From a virus (lineage: Duplodnaviria; Caudoviricetes), in the IMG/VR virus record IMGVR_UViG_2862830631_000005, positions 14,672-78,671 of that record: 64,000 nucleotides of DNA. One strand, given 5' to 3'. Positions 1-7,276 of the stretch are shown here, in pieces (the stretch's first letter is position 1; the number at the start of each line of letters is the position of its first letter). A program made the translations under genes and the position numbers. The notes beneath the pieces were generated by a model. It was not told the origin of the DNA and ran no database searches. It was given only the letters and a program-made list of their open reading frames with translations.

Positions 1-86
1 CGAGGCGATCTCGTTGGCCTGTTCGATGGTGGCCTGATCGATCTCACTCGCGAATGAAACAACCTTCGAGTTCAGCAGTGTGTAGC

Positions 87-671: not shown

Positions 672-698
672 AAAAAACCCCAGGTCAGAGACCTGGGG
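672..698 (-). terminator. intrinsic terminator closing the tRNA operon
   Basis: CCCCAGGT-ctctg-ACCTGGGG followed by T6 on the minus strand, just after the last tRNA. Confidence 0.85.
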
Positions 699-704
699 CT
701 GTTG

Positions 705-775
705 CAGTTCGTAGGGGACTCGAACCCCTACCTACAGATTGAGAATCTGGGATGCTGCCTTTACACCAACGAACC
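705..775 (-). tRNA. tRNA-Glu(CTC)
   Basis: GGTTCGT/ACGAACT acceptor, CAGA-TT-CTC-AA-TCTG anticodon arm, TTCGAGT T-loop. Confidence 0.85.
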
Positions 776-1114
776 ATTGCTGACGACCCACTGGCCGTCA
801 TCACGAACCTCCGTCTTAAGGTTCACCGGCCACATGTCGCGCTCAACTCGGGCCTTCAGAAGCGTCTCCTGGCCACACTGACGCTTCACCCATGTGCGGA
901 ACGTTGAGGTTTGCGCCATGCGCTTGAACGCCAACCGCTTGTTCTGCAACTGACTGCGCTCATCGCGAGCCTCACCAACGGCGCCGGAAGCCCTGTGAGT
1001 GACTCGGACACCGGTTTCCCGCTTGTTCTGATTCTGCCCACCCTTGCCGCCGGCACGAAATGTGTCGACCTGGCAGTCATCAAGGGTGACCGAGAATGCT
1101 AGTTCCATACTCAC
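761..1114 (-). CDS. peptide chain release factor-like / ArfB-type peptidyl-tRNA hydrolase
   Basis: FRAGGKGGQNQNK GGQ motif, GVRVTH, ERSQLQNK; 117 aa with no codon-recognition domains. Confidence 0.9.
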   Translation of the reverse strand: MSMELAFSVTLDDCQVDTFRAGGKGGQNQNKRETGVRVTHRASGAVGEARDERSQLQNKRLAFKRMAQTSTFRTWVKRQCGQETLLKARVERDMWPVNLKTEVRDDGQWVVSNGSLV

Positions 1115-1189
1115 GTCCCGACGACGGGATTTGAACCCGTGTATCCACCTCGACAGGGTGGCGTCCTGGGCCGCTAGACGACACCGGGA
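1115..1189 (-). tRNA. tRNA-Asp(GTC)
   Basis: CCACC-CT-GTC-GA-GGTGG anticodon arm; TTCAAAT T-loop. Confidence 0.9.
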
Positions 1190-1265
1190 TTGTTGGACTT
1201 GACGCGTACCTCACGGGTCAACTTTCTGGGAATCAAACCCTGGAGCTGCTTGACCAAAACTCCCG

Positions 1266-1339
1266 CATTCCGAGCGGGATTCGAACCCGCACTCTCCTGA
1301 GTGAAAATCAGGTGGGATGACCAATTACCCTATCGGAAC
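1266..1339 (-). tRNA. tRNA-Glu(TTC)
   Basis: CCTGA-TT-TTC-AC-TCAGG; TTCGAAT T-loop. Confidence 0.88.
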
Positions 1340-1345
1340 ACAATG

Positions 1346-1413
1346 TGGAGTACCGGGGAATCGGACCCCGCCTCTGAGTTTGCAAAACTCGGAGTCTCAC
1401 CAGACAGCACCCC
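1346..1413 (-). tRNA. atypical 68-nt tRNA-Ala(TGC)
   Basis: GGGGTGC/GTACTCC acceptor with G3:U70; mini D arm GTCT-GGTG-AGAC; TT-TGC-AA loop; TCCGATT T-loop. Confidence 0.7.
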
Positions 1414-1414
1414 G

Positions 1415-1531
1415 TTAAGCCGCCTTCCGGCGATGTGGACGACCGTGCCCCTTGTTGCGTGCTCCGTATGTTGGAGTCAACGCATGATGATTGGGGCACA
1501 GCACTCGCAGATTCGCCCGCGAGTTGTTGGT
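1415..1531 (-). pseudogene. HNH endonuclease C-terminal relic
   Basis: Translates TNNSRANLRVLCPNHHALTPTYGARNKGHGRPHRRKAA*; in-frame TAG a few codons upstream and no start codon. Confidence 0.75.
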
Positions 1532-1570
1532 GTAGGTCTCTTGACGGACCTATTGTGCAAAAAAGAGCTG

Positions 1571-1642
1571 AGCCCCTACGACGATTCGAACGCCGCACGC
1601 CGATTTACAAGATCGGAGCTTTTCCTACTAAGCTATAAGGGC
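1571..1642 (-). tRNA. tRNA-Thr(TGT)
   Basis: CCGAT-CT-TGT-AA-ATCGG; canonical T arm. Confidence 0.88.
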
Positions 1643-1643
1643 C

Positions 1644-1714
1644 TGGTAGCCGGTCAAGGAATCAAACCCTGCTTAGTTGGATGTAAGCCAACCTTCGTCT
1701 CAGACTAACCAGCC
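1644..1714 (-). tRNA. atypical tRNA-Val(TAC) with minimal D arm
   Basis: GGCTGGT/ACCGGCT-A-CCA; GGTTGG-CT-TAC-AT-CCAACT 6-bp anticodon stem; TTTGATT T-loop. Confidence 0.72.
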
Positions 1715-1715
1715 A

Positions 1716-1793
1716 TGGAGCATCCGCACGGAATCGAACCGAAACTTTCAGGGTGGAAGCCTGACGTGCTAGACCGTTAAACACTACGGACGC
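1716..1793 (-). tRNA. tRNA-Gly(TCC)
   Basis: TCAGG-CT-TCC-AC-CCTGA; ends in TCCA. Confidence 0.88.
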
Positions 1794-1813
1794 ATAGGTA
1801 TTCAATTATGTTG

Positions 1814-1880
1814 CGCGACAGGAGGGAGTCGAACCCCCATCCGACCGCTTAGGAGGCGGCTGGCCGTCCAGTGCTGCCGC
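1814..1880 (-). tRNA. atypical 67-nt tRNA-Arg(CCT)
   Basis: GCGGCAG/CTGTCGC acceptor; D arm with 4-nt loop; GCCGC-CT-CCT-AA-GCGGT; TTCGACT T-loop. Confidence 0.72.
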
Positions 1881-2043
1881 ATCGGACCTTGCTAATGATC
1901 TCCAAGTCCTCATACTCGCGGGACTCTTCGTAATCCCACTCGCGCCGCCACAGACGATCCTCAGCGGCCCGCTGACGCAACGCCAACATGTCACCGCCAC
2001 AACACCCTCGGCAACACGTCCTACGTCGCAGCATGGATGACAC
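1849..2043 (-). CDS. small hypothetical protein (Cys-rich N-terminus)
   Basis: GGAGGT RBS before GTG 2043 / ATG 2034; the ORF runs into tRNA-Arg(CCT). Confidence 0.5.
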   Translation of the reverse strand: MSSMLRRRTCCRGCCGGDMLALRQRAAEDRLWRREWDYEESREYEDLEIISKVRCGSTGRPAAS

Positions 2044-2056
2044 AGCTACCTCCAAG

Positions 2057-2131
2057 TGGTAGGGACACCGGGTACTGACCCCAGGATGCCGTCTTATCAG
2101 AACGGAGTGATAACCATTTCACTATGTCCCA
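2057..2131 (-). tRNA. tRNA-Ile(GAT)
   Basis: CCGTT-CT-GAT-AA-GACGG; ACCA end; non-canonical T-loop GTCAGTA. Confidence 0.8.
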
Positions 2132-2132
2132 G

Positions 2133-2206
2133 TAGGCCCAGAAGGAATTGAACCCTCGTCCCCGGATTAAGAGTCCGGTGCTATTCCCAACTTCAGCTAT
2201 AGGCCC
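2133..2206 (-). tRNA. tRNA-Lys(CTT)
   Basis: CCGGA-CT-CTT-AA-TCCGG. Confidence 0.9.
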
Positions 2207-2310
2207 ATATCCGGCAGTAACGGGGCCGGGGCCGAGTAGTCTTCAGCCACCCGATGGCCTACTACTACCTCTTTCGTCGTCGCGCCGGGTCAGGGCGGTC
2301 GGGATTTGCG

Positions 2311-2384
2311 TACTCGACGCGAGAGTCGAACTCGCAAGCACCTGAGTTTGAATCAGGCGGCTTTGCCGGTTTGCCTAGTCGAGC
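2311..2384 (-). tRNA. tRNA-Leu(CAA), short variable loop
   Basis: CCTGA-TT-CAA-AC-TCAGG; 5-nt variable loop. Confidence 0.85.
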
Positions 2385-2385
2385 A

Positions 2386-2859
2386 TTACGCCGCAGCTTT
2401 CCACGGCTTGTTTGTGTCGCACTGAGAATGACAGTTGGGACAGAGAAACCTCAGGTTCTCGGCGCGGTTATCGAGAGGGTTGCCGTCTATATGATCAATC
2501 TCCAGAACGATTGGAAGCCCCATCCATGAATCATCCAACCCGCATAGCTCACACACCGCTGGACGACCGATCTCGCTCAGTGCGCGGCGAAGGCGTTTGA
2601 CATCTTCACGGTTACTACCCTCAGGGCGAACCACAAGGATCTCAGTGGCCGCCTTTCGGCGGTTTGACGTCCCTCGACCGGCAGTCGTGTTTCGAAAGTG
2701 GCTTGTATCCAACCCCATGCGTACCACACGATTACGCATATGGAAGTGGCTACCGCCCGCCACCTTGATACCTAGTCTGCGGAGCACGTCTGACATCGAC
2801 GTGCAACTAGCGACCGCATCCGCCACCTGGGCGTCGGTATATGTTCTTTGTCTCCCCAT
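2386..2859 (-). CDS. HNH endonuclease
   Basis: CELCG...LEIDHIDGNPLDNRAENLRFLCPNCHSQ; N-terminal HTH-like region. Confidence 0.92.
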   Translation of the reverse strand: MGRQRTYTDAQVADAVASCTSMSDVLRRLGIKVAGGSHFHMRNRVVRMGLDTSHFRNTTAGRGTSNRRKAATEILVVRPEGSNREDVKRLRRALSEIGRPAVCELCGLDDSWMGLPIVLEIDHIDGNPLDNRAENLRFLCPNCHSQCDTNKPWKAAA

Positions 2860-2863
2860 TGCG

Positions 2864-2936
2864 TACCGAGGGCGGGGGTCGAACCCGCATACACCTGATT
2901 CTAAGTCAGGCGGCTCGCCAGATGGCCTACCTCGGC
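2864..2936 (-). tRNA. tRNA-Leu(TAG), short variable loop
   Basis: CCTGA-CT-TAG-AA-TCAGG. Confidence 0.85.
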
Positions 2937-2981
2937 ATATCGGGGAAGCCCCCGTAGTTCGGGATCCCCCCTGTGACCTAT

Positions 2982-3056
2982 TGGAACCGGGAGTCGGATC
3001 TGCACCGACGTAGGTCGGCTTTGCAGGCCGCCGCTTAACTACTCAGCCATCCCGGC
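2982..3056 (-). tRNA. tRNA-Cys(GCA)
   Basis: CGGC-CT-GCA-AA-GCCG; U73-CCA; T-loop TGCAGAT. Confidence 0.85.
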
Positions 3057-3311
3057 TTGTTCCCACCCCGGCCAATCATGGATGGTGGGAATGCGGCCCT
3101 GAGATCCATTCAGAGCCACGTTCACCTGCAGGGCGTAGGAAAGCCATGGACGAAGGTCATCCACGTCCTCTCCGTTGCCCTCAGCCTCATCTCTGGCAGC
3201 CTGCAGGATCTCTGCTATCTGCTGTCGACGGGCCACGACGGCCGGATGGCTGTTGAACCATTCGATCGCCGGCTGGAGAAACTTGGGATCTTCCTTCAGC
3301 AAGCCAGCCAT
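3039..3311 (-). CDS. hypothetical protein
   Basis: MAGLLKEDPKF... with upstream AGGGGA; the stop codon lies in the tRNA-Cys D-loop. Confidence 0.65.
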   Translation of the reverse strand: MAGLLKEDPKFLQPAIEWFNSHPAVVARRQQIAEILQAARDEAEGNGEDVDDLRPWLSYALQVNVALNGSQGRIPTIHDWPGWEQAGMAE

Positions 3312-3324
3312 CGTTTCCCCTAAG

Positions 3325-3398
3325 TGGTCAGACCGGACGGGCACGATCCGTCCCCTGCACAGTCACAGTGTGCAATGCTTCCGCTACACCACGGCCTT
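3325..3398 (-). tRNA. tRNA-His(GTG), atypical acceptor end
   Basis: GCACA-CT-GTG-AC-TGTGC; ACCA end; T-loop ATCGTGC. Confidence 0.78.
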
Positions 3399-3401
3399 GT
3401 G

Positions 3402-3474
3402 CGCCCCTGAAAGGATTCGAACCTCCACAGGCATGGCTTCGTAGGCCATCGCTCTTCCGTTGAGCTACAGAGGC
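3402..3474 (-). tRNA. tRNA-Arg(ACG)
   Basis: ATGGC-CT-ACG-AA-GCCAT. Confidence 0.9.
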
Positions 3475-3563
3475 AGTTGAGCTTTAACCATCTGCTTTAT
3501 TAGATTGCAGTTAGCGCAAAGGGTTTGATACCCTTCCGGCCAACCGCGATTCCTTAGCTGCTG
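3465..3563 (-). pseudogene. HNH endonuclease C-terminal relic
   Basis: Translates QQLRNRGWPEGYQTLCANCNLIKQMVKAQLPL*, an HNH-type P-x-GYQ-x-LC-x-NCN-x-x-K ending. Confidence 0.65.
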
Positions 3564-3792
3564 GCCGCTCCTGGCTAGCAGGAGCAAGCAAGCACAACGC
3601 TCGATGCAACCAAGTAGCAGCCGCTAAGAGCCCGCCATCCGGGTCGTCCACCGCATAACACGGCAGATCACCAAACTTCTCACGGTACATCTCGATAGCA
3701 GTGGCATGCCCGCCCTCATAAGACCAACCGATGAACGCGCACGCACGCTCAGCCTCAGCCGTAGAAGGCAAGGGCCCCCAGAAGTCAGGCAC
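3511..3792 (-). CDS. hypothetical protein
   Basis: GTG start overlapping the upstream ORF end; the C-terminus runs over the HNH relic. Confidence 0.5.
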   Translation of the reverse strand: MPDFWGPLPSTAEAERACAFIGWSYEGGHATAIEMYREKFGDLPCYAVDDPDGGLLAAATWLHRALCLLAPASQERPAAKESRLAGRVSNPLR

Positions 3793-4039
3793 GGCGCTGC
3801 CACCCATCCATTTCCATCTGACTGCGATGCGAACGGTGGTCGTCATCGTCATAACCAACCGAAACGCAAATCAGGTACCAACCCGGCTTAACCCAAAGCT
3901 CAAGGTTCTCGCCGTGAACATTTAACCCACTATCCTCGGCGACATACAGCAGGGCGTCAATCGACCGCTTAACAGCGTCGGGCGTCATAGCGCTATGACA
4001 GGCGTGATAAAAGAAATGCTTCTCAGGCACACTCGGCAT
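3785..4039 (-). CDS. hypothetical protein
   Basis: GGGGAG RBS then ATG (MPSVPEKHFFYH...). Confidence 0.55.
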   Translation of the reverse strand: MPSVPEKHFFYHACHSAMTPDAVKRSIDALLYVAEDSGLNVHGENLELWVKPGWYLICVSVGYDDDDHRSHRSQMEMDGWQRRA

Positions 4040-4086
4040 GAAACAACTCCCCCGCATACTCGGCGACCATCTTCTTTGATTCCATC

Positions 4087-4160
4087 TGGTTGCGCAGCTG
4101 GGATTCGAACCCAGAGCCTCGGCTTATGAGACCGAGATGTTCCCCTTACACTACCGCGCA
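4087..4160 (-). tRNA. tRNA-Met(CAT)
   Basis: TCGGT-CT-CAT-AA-GCCGA; ACCA end. Confidence 0.88.
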
Positions 4161-4216
4161 ATATCCGGATTGGTTCGCCTCTCACCGGCATCGAGGAGTG
4201 GTTTCCACTTCATACG

Positions 4217-4291
4217 TCGGAACGCTTGGATTCGAACCAAGGGCCTCCCGGGTTTCAACCGGGCGCTCTCACCTCACTGAGCTACGATCCG
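4217..4291 (-). tRNA. tRNA-Phe(GAA)
   Basis: CCCGG-TT-GAA-AC-CCGGG. Confidence 0.9.
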
Positions 4292-4369
4292 AGGAGTCCC
4301 ACCCATTCATGCCAGCCCCTCTGGCAACCTGTATTCACTCTTAGTGGCCACCAGGCGGGTGGGGGTAAG

Positions 4370-4496
4370 CGGAGGGCTGTGGGCACGATCCACACGGGTT
4401 GTCTACCGCGCACCCCTTAGCAGGGGGCCCCAGCTCCCTGGCTGGTTAGCTCTCCAAAGTTCCCGGTCGCTCTGCCAGTTGAGACGTATACCCCTG
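4370..4496 (-). ncRNA. tRNA-like RNA with expanded anticodon arm
   Basis: D-arm-like CTC-AACTGGCA-GAG, ACCG/CGGT stem enclosing two hairpins, T arm TGTGG-ATCGTGC-CCACA. Confidence 0.45.
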
Positions 4497-4555
4497 ACGC
4501 ACCAACAGTCCTTCGCGCGAACTAGGTGTTGGCTCCCACCGTGCACGGCAGGCGA

Positions 4556-4716
4556 CGAGGGCAGGTGGATTCGAACCACCAACCACCAGTTGCGAAGAGC
4601 GGAGGTCTTGATCCCCAAGCAGCATCACCTGCTACCCGGTATTCGACACCGGTCGGGGCACTCGCCCCTGCTTCACTCTCCAGATGCCGGTCGAGTTGCT
4701 TTTACCCTGCGCCTCC
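4556..4716 (-). ncRNA. outer tRNA-like shell enclosing tRNA-Ser(CGA)
   Basis: GGAGGCG/TGCCCTC acceptor, GGGT/ACTC D stem, ACCGG/CTGGT anticodon stem, perfect GGTGG-TTCGAAT-CCACC T arm. Confidence 0.55.
4593..4681 (-). tRNA. atypical tRNA-Ser(CGA)
   Basis: GGAGAGT/GCTCTTC-G acceptor; CCGGT-GT-CGA-AT-ACCGG; long variable arm AGCAG/CTGCT; divergent D and T arms. Confidence 0.72.
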
Positions 4717-4738
4717 CCGGCTTGTGGCGCAGCATGTG

Positions 4739-4812
4739 TGGAGTCACCGAGGCTTGAACTCGGCTCTGCTGGACTGCGAATCCGGCGTTTTACCTTGTTA
4801 AACTACAACCCC
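4739..4812 (-). tRNA. tRNA-Ala(CGC)
   Basis: GGGGTTG/TGACTCC with G3:U70; TT-CGC-AG loop. Confidence 0.85.
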
Positions 4813-5039
4813 ATTGTGCGGTTTCGGGTGTCGCGATTCACCCTACCGAGAGGTCCGCTATCTCGGATCCGTGGTTGGATAACACAGCCAGCGGCATCGG
4901 ACTGCGACCCCGTAAATTAACGTCACCAGGGATCAGGGCGGGTAGTTATCCGATCTACCAACGGCTAGTTCGGTCCGGCCCAGTTTTAACCCGCTCGGGC
5001 CGGGGGTGGGAAGCAGTTTGAATTGATGCTCAACAATCG

Positions 5040-5111
5040 CTGGAAACCCTGGATTCGAACCAAGAATGACGGGTTCAGATCCCGTAGTGTTGCCGGTTAC
5101 ACCAGTCTCCA
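5040..5111 (-). tRNA. tRNA-Gln(CTG)
   Basis: ACGGG-AT-CTG-AA-CCCGT; U1-A72 and G73. Confidence 0.87.
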
Positions 5112-5393
5112 ATGCTGGAAAGGCATTTCGGTCGGCCCACCTCTCCACTGGCCGGTGGGCAGTCGATTCGGGGTCGAGCCCCTCCCTCGTCTGTGTTCCC
5201 CACTAGGACTGGCCTTGCGAGCAGGGGCCCTCATGTTGGTGTCGCAAGCCACGAACGGGTGCCCCGTCAGTCCCAAGATTGGAGACGCTTAGTTCAGTAG
5301 GCCCAGCGTCACTGCCTACACGATCCCAGGCTGGGGACGGTCCTACTTTCCCTCACCGTGCCCACGGGTGGGAGTGGTACCTCTCGTGTGTTG

Positions 5394-5470
5394 TCTCGCC
5401 GTGAGGAGTCGAACCTCCACACCCGAAGGAAGGGCTTTACAGGCCCCGTTGCTCACCTATGCGCGACGAG
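5394..5470 (-). tRNA. tRNA-Tyr(GTA), reduced D arm
   Basis: CTCGTCG/CGGCGAG-A; GGGC-CT-GTA-AA-GCCC; CC-TTCG-GG variable arm. Confidence 0.8.
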
Positions 5471-5763
5471 ATTGGAGGTGCGGCCTACAGACAAATACCG
5501 CACTACCACGCCATTTCACCGGATTATCGTTTCCCGGCTTGTCCCCCAGATCCCTCCAGGAGGCGCGTACGCCTGGTCCTTGTGAACCACTGTTCATGTC
5601 GAAAGCTACTCTGCGGCGTTCCCTTCGCCGTTGGGATGGCCGTCCCATGGCTGCAGTACTGACCTACAAACAGGATCCGCCTTGCGGGCTCGTCCTGCCC
5701 CGATTCTGCTCCACAGTCGGGGATTAAGGCGCTTTAACTCTTCGACAGGGAAAGTCTTTTGCT

Positions 5764-5839
5764 TGGATAACATCACAGGAATTGAACCTGCGACCTTCTG
5801 TTCTCAATACAGATGCTCTACCAATTGAGCTAGATGTTG
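5764..5839 (-). tRNA. tRNA with TGA anticodon (nominally Ser) on a class I body
   Basis: Canonical D and T arms; TCTGT-AT-TGA-GA-ACAGA; 5-nt variable loop; C1:A72 mismatch; U73-CCA. Confidence 0.75.
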
Positions 5840-6242
5840 TGACCGGAGACGTGCTTCCCCATGAAGGTCCGTAACCTTTTGAGCTACAGAATGCTTCACG
5901 CCTCTCGCGCTTCAGGCTGGCGACCTGTTTCGCGCTCTCCCTCAACCGCATGCGAGCCGTCGCCCGTCGCGAGATCGGTCATGGAACCCGCCTTCGCCTG
6001 CCAGGGCTCTGACTCAGTTCCTTCCGCACCCACACCAGCCTTAGTCGATAACACTTTCGGGCCTACGTTAGGTCATGGTGTCCTCAGCACGTTGCCGTTG
6101 GACCATGTGTACCTCGGTGGCGCACCGCCCCTTCGAGGACGGTGTCGGGTTGTGGATTGCATGGATTGCCCTCACGGGTGGCGAGCTGTCACACTCACCT
6201 TTCAGTGCCTTACGGCACCTTATCGGCCATGCCCGAAATCTT

Positions 6243-6346
6243 GATGGGGCCTGGATTCTAACCAGGATCTCCAGGGAATGCCACGTCCGGACGTGGGGCC
6301 TGGGCTCTACCGGGGATCAAGCCGGCTGATCTTGAGCTACACCCTC
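6243..6346 (-). ncRNA. tRNA-like RNA lacking an anticodon loop
   Basis: TA-GCTC...GGTA-GAGC D arm with an inserted hairpin; CCAGG/CCTGG stem capped by CCACGT-CCGG-ACGTGG; T arm CCTGG-TTAGAAT-CCAGG. Confidence 0.6.
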
Positions 6347-6347
6347 G

Positions 6348-6420
6348 CTGGTCCGCCAGGATTCGAACCTGGAACTTCCTGGTTAACAGCCAAGCGTGTT
6401 GCCGGTTACACCACGAACCA
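6348..6420 (-). tRNA. tRNA-Asn(GTT)
   Basis: CTTGG-CT-GTT-AA-CCAGG. Confidence 0.88.
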
Positions 6421-6576
6421 ATGATTGCCGCCAAACCAGGTGGGGGGAGCTTTTGACCGCACGATGGCGGGGTGGCTGTTATGTCACCCGGTTTGGTAAG
6501 TCTTTCCCACCAGTGTGACGACAGGTGGGCGTGCCGGTCCTAAACGGACACACTCAGTTGACACTTTTTCATTGCG

Positions 6577-6648
6577 TCGGGAAGCACAGACTCGAACTGC
6601 GTACGCCCGCATCCGAAGCGGCCATGTTTACCTTTACACCACATCCCG
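6577..6648 (-). tRNA. tRNA-Pro(CGG)
   Basis: CCGC-TT-CGG-AT-GCGG; C1-G72, A73. Confidence 0.87.
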
Positions 6649-6722
6649 ATTGGAAGCATGGCGGATGGAGTGGGCTCTGTACCATCTCTTACCTATGGCC
6701 ATTCCCGACCATGCTTCACGAG

Positions 6723-7160
6723 TGGAGCTGGCGGGAGTCGAACCCGCGTCTTACGTTCTTCGTACTCAGTCTTCTACGTGCGTAGTCCAGACAGGTGTAA
6801 TCCCAGCCAGCTACTGGACATACGGCTGCGGATTTGCTTCGGATTTACCCCCGAGTGGGCTGCAATTTTAGCCTACGGGTGCGCGGGCGCTACGGTCTGC
6901 CAACCATTCCTGCGGTCCCCGTATTAGCGACGCTGGATTGGTAGACGGAACGGGTAAACCGCTCTACCCCAACGGACTTCAGCTAGGCTGCGACGAGAAA
7001 CTCAGCCTCGATGTCCTCAACGGAGAAATCGAGCTCAGCTTCCCAGGCAGCGAAGTCAGCATCAGTATCGACTGCGCTTAATTTGTTTTGCACTGTTACG
7101 GGCGTTGCATCCCGGCACGCTTCCCTGGACTCTGTTCGCAATCGAAACCAGAACAGCCCC
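6723..7160 (-). ncRNA. ssrA: tmRNA
   Basis: 5' GGGGCTGTTCTGGTTTCGA; 3' GGGTTCGACTCCCGCCAGCTCCA with G3:U70; tag frame 7075..6983 AVDTDADFAAWEAELDFSVEDIEAEFLVAA*. Confidence 0.95.
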
Positions 7161-7205
7161 ATGAAACTTACTTGATATCCACTATTTAGTTCTCAAAGTA
7201 CTGAG

Positions 7206-7276
7206 CAGGGTCGGAGGGATTCGAACCCCCATAAGCGGCTTTGGAGACCACGGTCCTGCCGTTGGACGACAACCCT
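7206..7276 (-). tRNA. tRNA-Trp(CCA)
   Basis: GTGGT-CT-CCA-AA-GCCGC. Confidence 0.9.

Follow-up and report, generated by a model that had tools for sequence, protein, structure and literature searches.

Why does the stop codon of a release factor-like phage gene lie inside the tRNA that follows it? The preliminary description of this locus proposed that maturation of the tRNA strips the stop codon from the upstream mRNA, placing a ribosome rescue factor under the same feedback as ArfA of Escherichia coli and BrfA of Bacillus subtilis. Here, we investigated the gene, its product, its neighbors, and its relatives, beginning from a 64-kb window, the whole stretch of DNA that was analyzed. The window is part of a 6.23-Mb bacterial assembly of 210 contigs and is therefore a prophage. 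Its DNA is ~80% identical, in patches, to that of the cluster M mycobacteriophages Bongo, PegLeg, Rey, and Nanosmite. A tRNA array occupies the left end of the window, with all of its elements on the minus strand. See Table 1 for the coordinates of the features discussed below.

Table 1. Coordinates of the features of the tRNA array and its surroundings in the 64-kb window
Feature	Positions	Strand	Details
RtcB-like RNA ligase gene (start only)	1..21	minus	G000:C178:42679-43806, minus; 358.8 bits
Intrinsic terminator	676..700	minus	11-bp stem, then T run; directly 3′ of tRNA-Glu
tRNA array	704..7276	minus	21 tRNAs (ARAGORN) and 2 Rfam-only, tmRNA, GOLLD RNA, interspersed ORFs
tRNA-Glu(CTC)	704..775	minus	ARAGORN; 5′ end 775, discriminator 705, C74 at 704
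ORF/tRNA-Glu overlap	761..775	minus	15 nt; last four sense codons (G S L V) and TAA are tRNA bases 1–15
RF-1/GGQ-domain (RF) gene	761..1114	minus	117 aa; GTG start at 1114; stop TAA 763-761
tRNA-Asp(GTC)	1115..1188	minus	Discriminator 1116, C74 at 1115; RF-gene GTG next at 1114, no spacer
Two tRNA-like matches	1814-1880 and 2060-2131	minus	Rfam only, 32.7 and 42.7 bits; ARAGORN negative
HNH endonuclease gene	2386-2859	minus	3 nt after tRNA-Leu(tag); stop 1 nt before tRNA-Leu(caa)
phrog_15799 gene (control)	3039..3311	minus	E 8.6e-19; unrelated to RF; TAG 18 nt inside tRNA-Cys (2982-3056)
GOLLD RNA	5476..5904	minus	Rfam 162 bits, gathering score 150
Phage tmRNA	6720..7160	minus	Rfam RF00023, 104.7 bits, full length; missed by ARAGORN

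The terminator at 700..676 is the only strong intrinsic terminator on the minus strand, and the M. abscessus-type relatives have an equivalent hairpin and T run 3′ of their tRNA-Glu. A lone strong terminator in this place is compatible with a single transcription unit for the array. The preliminary description had placed a tmRNA in the same operon as the release factor-like (RF) gene. The tmRNA is indeed on the same strand and in the same array, 5.6 kb upstream of the RF gene; a shared transcription unit fits the arrangement rather than being proven by it. The tag frame of the tmRNA runs from position 7075 and encodes 30 residues ending in LVAA-stop. The GOLLD RNA contains a tRNA-Ser(tga) at positions 5764-5839 and is probably the structured RNA of ~430 nt that, according to the available text of PMC5966550, most tRNA arrays of mycobacteria contain. 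An ORF at positions 1849-2055 lies between the two tRNA-like matches found only by Rfam and would also end within the weaker of them. The RtcB-like ligase gene runs past the left window edge, with two small ORFs between it and the array terminator. Bongo and Rey likewise have an RtcB-like ligase downstream of the array terminator, and the host has a second RtcB elsewhere.

The 15-nt overlap is a plain sequence fact rather than a statistical signal. The RF reading frame ends ...AAT GGT TCG TTG GTG TAA, and its nucleotides 775..761 are bases 1–15 of tRNA-Glu, as the preliminary description had noted and as the ORF list, ARAGORN, and Rfam all agree. Both ARAGORN (704..775) and Rfam (705..775, 55.8 bits against a gathering score of 29) place the 5′ end of the tRNA at position 775. 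The TAA of the RF gene thus forms tRNA bases 13–15, in the D arm. In this tRNA, T13-A14-R15 is an in-frame stop for any frame that enters at tRNA base 1, and the syntenic relatives have TAG at the same tRNA-Glu position and in the same frame. RNase P cuts at tRNA position +1. Such a cut would strip the stop codon from the upstream RNA, and to this extent the earlier inference of a non-stop mRNA is well founded.

The identification of the gene as encoding a GGQ protein was likewise borne out. The product scores 62.2 bits against Pfam RF-1 (PF00472; cut-off 35) and matches PHROG 3122, “RF-1 domain peptide chain release factor,” over residues 2–113 (E 2.5e-56). G25 G26 Q27 is invariant in a 101-sequence alignment, and the window protein keeps all of the invariant family residues. 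An alternative gene-caller version of the protein has 115 aa and starts at the ATG at position 1108. The dN/dS of the gene is 0.04–0.14 against three relatives, over 109 codons with synonymous sites near saturation; therefore, the gene is functional and under strong purifying selection. The 117-aa protein lacks the codon-reading domains 2/4 of the class I factors RF1/RF2 (~350–370 aa), and models of these factors match it only at model positions 208–283, with 53–61 bits against cut-offs of 370–423. It also falls below the cut-offs of the NCBIfam equivalogs for ArfB (24.5 bits against 100; E 1.7e-5; residues 7–40, 34 residues) and PrfH (59.6 bits against 166.65). The GGQ domain resembles domain 3 of RF1, RF2, and PrfH (E ~1e-16) much more than it resembles ArfB. 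Searches of solved structures by sequence and fold placed RF2 and RF1 at the top, followed by PrfH (fold match E 4e-4) and mtRF-R, and no ArfB chain was among the matches listed. The gene product is best explained as a member of a widespread family of phage peptidyl-tRNA hydrolases that consist of a stand-alone GGQ (RF-1) domain, with a putative rescue activity.

An AlphaFold model built from 101 sequences (mean pLDDT 86.5) has a GGQ beta/alpha core followed by helices at residues 70–79 and 82–93 and a beta-hairpin at 101–112. The last strand ends at residue 112, and the final block, residues 111–117, has a pLDDT of 60. Residues 68–117 carry 8 K/R against 6 D/E, and residues 94–117 carry 2 K/R against 3 D/E. 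The tail that follows the conserved Trp varies from 3 to 12 residues among the relatives compared. In this model, the four residues encoded within the tRNA (G S L V) are a low-confidence, unconserved tail past the last structural element. Because homology ends at Trp-Val, the tails vary, and the pLDDT is low, this tail is dispensable. A product cut at the RNase P site would retain the entire conserved protein. In both cases of overlap that we found, the window and the loci L046/L047 described below, the whole conserved protein is encoded 5′ of the RNase P site.

We then compared where the stop codon falls in relatives. By tblastn, 273 records of a phage collection contain the protein, including 207 from Mycobacterium phages, and we inspected seven annotated loci: Nanosmite, EniyanLRS, WXIN, ScottMcG, prophiT49-2, prophi86-1, and prophiGD54-2. 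In Nanosmite (86% identical), EniyanLRS, WXIN, and ScottMcG, the RF gene lies in a protein-coding operon, its start overlapping the preceding stop by 4 nt, and no tRNA is annotated near it in the stretches examined. The M. abscessus prophages prophiT49-2, prophi86-1, and prophiGD54-2 have the synteny of the window (tRNA-Asp, RF, tRNA-Glu(ctc)), with a CDS that ends 6 nt before the tRNA. The wider locus set came from viral contigs (66), genome contigs (6), and metagenome contigs (80), each locus being scored by script; L001, L010, L011, and L081-L083 were dropped as having no RF gene, host prfA/prfB, or weak matches to long proteins. A same-strand tRNA lies within 1.5 kb at 46 of the 157 retained loci, which are not all independent, as some contigs are present in two collections.

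Among the ten syntenic relatives, the window apart, the stop lies 6 nt before tRNA-Glu in nine and 41 nt before it in one, with no overlap in any. Homologues therefore generally stop before the tRNA, the outcome that the preliminary description had named as refuting its proposal, and the overlap is absent from all ten syntenic and all four operon-type relatives. Similar spacings recur at other tRNAs: the RF stop lies 6 nt before tRNA-Ser(gct) at L018, 7 nt before tRNA-Arg(ccg) at L034, 6 nt before tRNA-Gln(ttg) at L037, L039, and L125, and 5 nt before tRNA-Thr(ggt) at L071. At six further loci, it lies 106 nt before tRNA-Cys. The exception is L046/L047, low in G+C and with a protein of 47% identity, where the stop lies 27 nt inside tRNA-Thr(cgt), the 5′ end of which is confirmed by Rfam. 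This overlap arose independently of that in the window. Counted by junction state (downstream same-strand tRNA at ≤120 nt, window included), two of eight overlap: the window and L046/L047. As described in the available part of PMC8012679, tmRNA-SmpB and ArfB are efficient only where the mRNA extends no more than about 9 nt beyond the P site. Set against this limit, the 5–7-nt tail of the relatives means that normal termination is still possible. After processing, an obligatorily non-stop mRNA would result in the window and in L046/L047 only.

The exact window protein was found in one contig only of a 15-billion-protein collection, where its nearest relative is 86% identical and no protein falls between 86% and 100% identity. 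A close homologue (E ≤ 1e-20) is present in 0 of 399 other genomes of the genus, with one more genome unscored. One homologue, L034:1489-1878, has a single mid-gene in-frame stop (after ...FKV), which could reflect a pseudogene, a sequencing error, or recoding; it was kept out of the fold alignment.

How the overlap came about can be partly read from two alignments, A1 and A2. In both, the RF genes are homologous from precisely the start codon up to a conserved Trp-Val close to the C-terminus, and 3′ of Trp-Val each lineage has a different sequence. The syntenic relatives continue Trp-Val-Glu-Gln-stop, followed by a 6-nt spacer that holds a second in-frame stop and then by the tRNA, in which bases 13–15 form a third. 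From the conserved Trp codon to tRNA +1, the window has a net 6 nt less; the first two stops are missing from it, and the third is used. A simple 6-nt in-frame deletion was considered and rejected, as a shared AGCAAT is read in another frame in the window (A2). The overlap may therefore have arisen through two or more indels or at a recombination junction. In Bongo, Rey, and Nanosmite, tRNA-Asp adjoins tRNA-Glu(ctc) with no RF gene in between; therefore, the RF cassette is an insertion and the derived state. A quick tree groups the window RF gene with those of Nanosmite and EniyanLRS (support 99), apart from the syntenic group, which hints at an allele replacement with its 3′ junction near the stop.

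Overlap with a tRNA is not peculiar to the RF gene. The control gene of family phrog_15799, in the same array, ends inside tRNA-Cys, and the homologous genes of Bongo (gp105), Rey (gp121), and Nanosmite (gp110) all run 10 nt into tRNA-Leu(cag), so that this family shows a CDS/tRNA overlap in all three relatives examined. We had considered prophiGD54-2 gp113, which occupies the same position, as a further control; it has no similarity to phrog_15799, and the Bongo, Rey, and Nanosmite homologues were used instead. Since the phrog_15799 genes overlap tRNAs in the window, Bongo, Rey, and Nanosmite, the overlap is not specific to a rescue factor. Six related arrays have 13 annotated non-RF CDS-to-tRNA junctions; the distance is ≤10 nt in 9, and 3 of the 13 show an overlap of 10 nt. 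Together with the HNH and phrog_15799 genes of the window, this survey indicates that very tight or overlapping 3′ junctions are the norm in such arrays.

The other end of the gene gave a more consistent picture. The RF start codon directly follows the upstream tRNA in 23 of 28 loci (ARAGORN; same-strand tRNA within 30 nt). These flush starts represent six junction types of differing sequence: tRNA-Asp (the window and its syntenic group), tRNA-Leu(caa) (L019 and L090), two kinds of tRNA-Ser(gct) (the L021 group; L089), tRNA-Thr(tgt) (L061), and tRNA-Lys(ttt) (L162 and L163). In the four contexts checked, Rfam boundaries give the order discriminator, C74, RTG; at L162, the ATG follows the discriminator. 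A flush start occurs in only 1 of 13 non-RF array CDSs. At the gapped junctions (L132, L034, and L018), a Shine-Dalgarno-like motif fills the gap between tRNA and start codon, and several flush junctions have none. The C74 that precedes the start codon was considered as an RF-specific feature and set aside, as an encoded C74 is present in 255 of the 267 unique array tRNAs; the full CCA is encoded in only 65, and the pattern of C74 without CCA suggests a shared rule of 3′-end processing. The recurrent, selected feature of these genes thus appears to be the 5′ end, with its start codon abutting the upstream tRNA, and the tree is compatible with a single origin of the flush junctions. We infer that tRNA 3′ processing would release a leaderless or 1-nt-leader RF mRNA, a punctuation like that of mitochondria. 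In the available parts of two studies of mycobacteria, an ATG or GTG placed at the 5′ end of an mRNA is both required and sufficient for leaderless translation (PMC4633059), and RNase E cleaves immediately 5′ of cytidines (PMC10641625).

On balance, we favor reading the overlap as a tolerated, lineage-specific loss of the gene’s own stop codon in a tRNA-punctuated cassette, most likely a by-product of how tightly genes are packed in these arrays and probably not a selected ArfA-like switch; this judgment draws on sequence comparison. The compact cassette exactly fills the place between tRNA-Asp and tRNA-Glu(CTC), at the 3′ end of the array and just before the terminator. In the proposed mechanism, loss of the stop-containing spacer of the relatives (net 6 nt) would let translation continue to T13-A14-A15 in the D arm. 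Unprocessed transcripts would yield the 117-aa protein, and an RNase P cut at tRNA +1 would leave an RF RNA ending after the Asn-113 codon with no stop, the non-stop complexes of which would go to tmRNA. To terminate at the TAA, a ribosome would need to unwind the acceptor and D arms of the tRNA, so that RF termination and tRNA-Glu maturation would exclude each other on any one molecule. At the other end, where the start codon abuts the upstream tRNA, tRNA 3′ processing could free a leaderless mRNA. Two observations run counter to treating the overlap as a by-product. The overlap at L046/L047 recurs independently, so the arrangement could be selected. Furthermore, five other junction types have their stop 5–7 nt short of the tRNA and would keep almost no 3′ tail after processing, and these near-tRNA stops could reflect a family-wide link between processing and termination.

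As a selected sensor of the ArfA/BrfA kind, the overlap would have RNase P remove the stop and phage or host tmRNA tag the product for destruction, with the factor accumulating only under saturated trans-translation. The mechanics of such a sensor hold for the window sequence, the phage tmRNA in the same array has a plausible degradation tag, and the cut site lies downstream of the codons for the full conserved protein. The host genome has its own tmRNA (on another contig) and SmpB, no ArfA, and no ArfB above the cut-off, which would give a back-up factor a role. The independent second overlap at L046/L047 also speaks for a sensor, and the ArfA/BrfA regulation that it borrows matches the description in the available part of PMC8012679. 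However, the overlap is found in none of the ten syntenic and none of the four operon-type relatives, and the same arrays contain an unrelated gene family whose members overlap tRNAs. The protein also lies well outside the ArfB family by score, and, unlike full-length ArfA, the full-length form shows no sign of being defective. We therefore regard a selected sensor as quite unlikely, and ArfA-like feedback as a legitimate hypothesis for this one prophage.

A wider alternative is that tRNA punctuation is functionally coupled to expression throughout the family. The RF mRNA of the arrays would then exist only as a processing product with a leaderless 5′ end and 0–7 nt after the stop, or no stop, of which the window is the extreme case, and its translation and termination would be tied to tRNA-processing rates and ribosome-rescue capacity. 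The flush starts in six junction types agree with such coupling, as do the five junction types with a stop 5–7 nt short of the tRNA and the two with a stop inside it, the near-universal C74 with its rarer full CCA, the sufficiency of ATG/GTG 5′ ends for leaderless translation in mycobacteria, the preference of mycobacterial RNase E, and the limit of about 9 nt for tmRNA-SmpB and ArfB (PMC4633059, PMC10641625, and PMC8012679, each as far as its text was available). A cut after the discriminator would, however, give a 1-nt leader; in the hosts of several flush loci, leaderless translation may be weak; and weak Shine-Dalgarno-like purines in some tRNA 3′ ends (L019 and L162) would make translation of the unprocessed precursor possible. 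We consider this family-wide coupling doubtful. We are equally tentative about its boldest form, in which actinophage arrays would make a punctuated, leaderless RF mRNA and a processing-gated GGQ factor, obligatorily non-stop in the overlap lineages and there tied inversely to trans-translation as ArfA is. Lastly, the missing 6 nt could be an assembly error, or the gene could be degenerating in a cryptic prophage, given that the arrangement comes from a single draft assembly of 210 contigs. Yet the frame is intact with all invariant family residues present, the low dN/dS argues against decay, and a net 6-nt difference accompanied by several flanking substitutions is untypical of assembly error. 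We give artefact or decay very little credence, and the tolerated loss of a stop codon remains our preferred reading.

Like ArfA of E. coli and BrfA of B. subtilis, the locus has a truncating site, inferred to be that of RNase P, upstream of the stop in a gene with a link to ribosome rescue. The predicted RNase P site, at the 5′ end of the tRNA, falls 15 nt before the ORF end. As with ArfA and BrfA, truncation would leave the whole of the conserved protein in the product. The likeness is limited in two respects. ArfA and BrfA are small RF2 recruiters without a GGQ motif, unlike the window protein. Moreover, their truncating element (an RNase III or terminator hairpin) is conserved and full-length ArfA is unstable, according to the available part of PMC8012679, whereas none of the 14 close relatives that are annotated or syntenic has the arrangement of the window.

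Like ArfB/ICT1, the window protein is a single GGQ domain of about 110–140 aa without codon-reading domains. ArfB has a basic C-terminal tail that lacks structure in solution and probes the empty mRNA channel; in the window protein, the C-terminal 50 residues are instead predicted to form two helices and a beta-hairpin with a charge of ~+2, and its GGQ domain is closer to domain 3 of RF1/RF2/PrfH. As in the PrfH-RtcB2 pair (PMC9304027, available in part), a GGQ protein is encoded near an RtcB-type ligase, here ~0.7 kb downstream and past the terminator. However, the two genes of the window are separated by a tRNA, the terminator, and two small ORFs, and the protein has about half the length of PrfH and scores below the PrfH cut-off. 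No RtcB gene is annotated beside the RF gene in the stretches examined of Nanosmite, EniyanLRS, WXIN, and ScottMcG.

Phage arrays that combine tRNAs with a tmRNA, a GGQ factor, and an RtcB ligase resemble portable translation-maintenance kits. In animal mitochondria, coding regions lie flush with tRNAs at both ends, and processing of these tRNAs yields leaderless mRNAs with little or no 3′ UTR and some incomplete stop codons. If tRNA processing does set both ends of the RF mRNA, the phage arrays would be a bacterial-virus counterpart of this mitochondrial punctuation, and tRNA punctuation would be a new route to leaderless and non-stop mRNAs. In contrast to mitochondria, the setting here is a bacterial virus with no polyadenylation-based completion of stop codons, and the punctuation is predicted from sequence. 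If the overlap is a packing accident, which we hold to be likelier, it would show how readily a tRNA D arm can come to supply the stop codon of a gene, and it would caution against inferring regulation from one overlap.

Part of this picture was known already. Morgado & Vicente (2018; PMC5966550, as far as its text was available) report the RF-1-domain family as the core CDS of the tRNA arrays of group G1 in genomes of Mycobacterium, and those arrays share with the window both the family and its setting, with a tmRNA and a ~430-nt structured RNA (GOLLD in the window). The available text of PMC5966550 does not contain the word “overlap,” and stop-in-tRNA and flush starts are not described there. 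A limited literature search found no description of tRNA-punctuated leaderless phage mRNAs or of a stop codon in a tRNA as a non-stop device. Neither the stop-in-tRNA state nor the recurrent flush start junctions were described in the literature searched. Furthermore, the distant phage contig that carries the RF homologue L071:2931-3324 (46% identical) also has a tmRNA (128 bits) ~1 kb downstream; therefore, the association of RF gene, tRNA array, and tmRNA recurs beyond mycobacteriophages.
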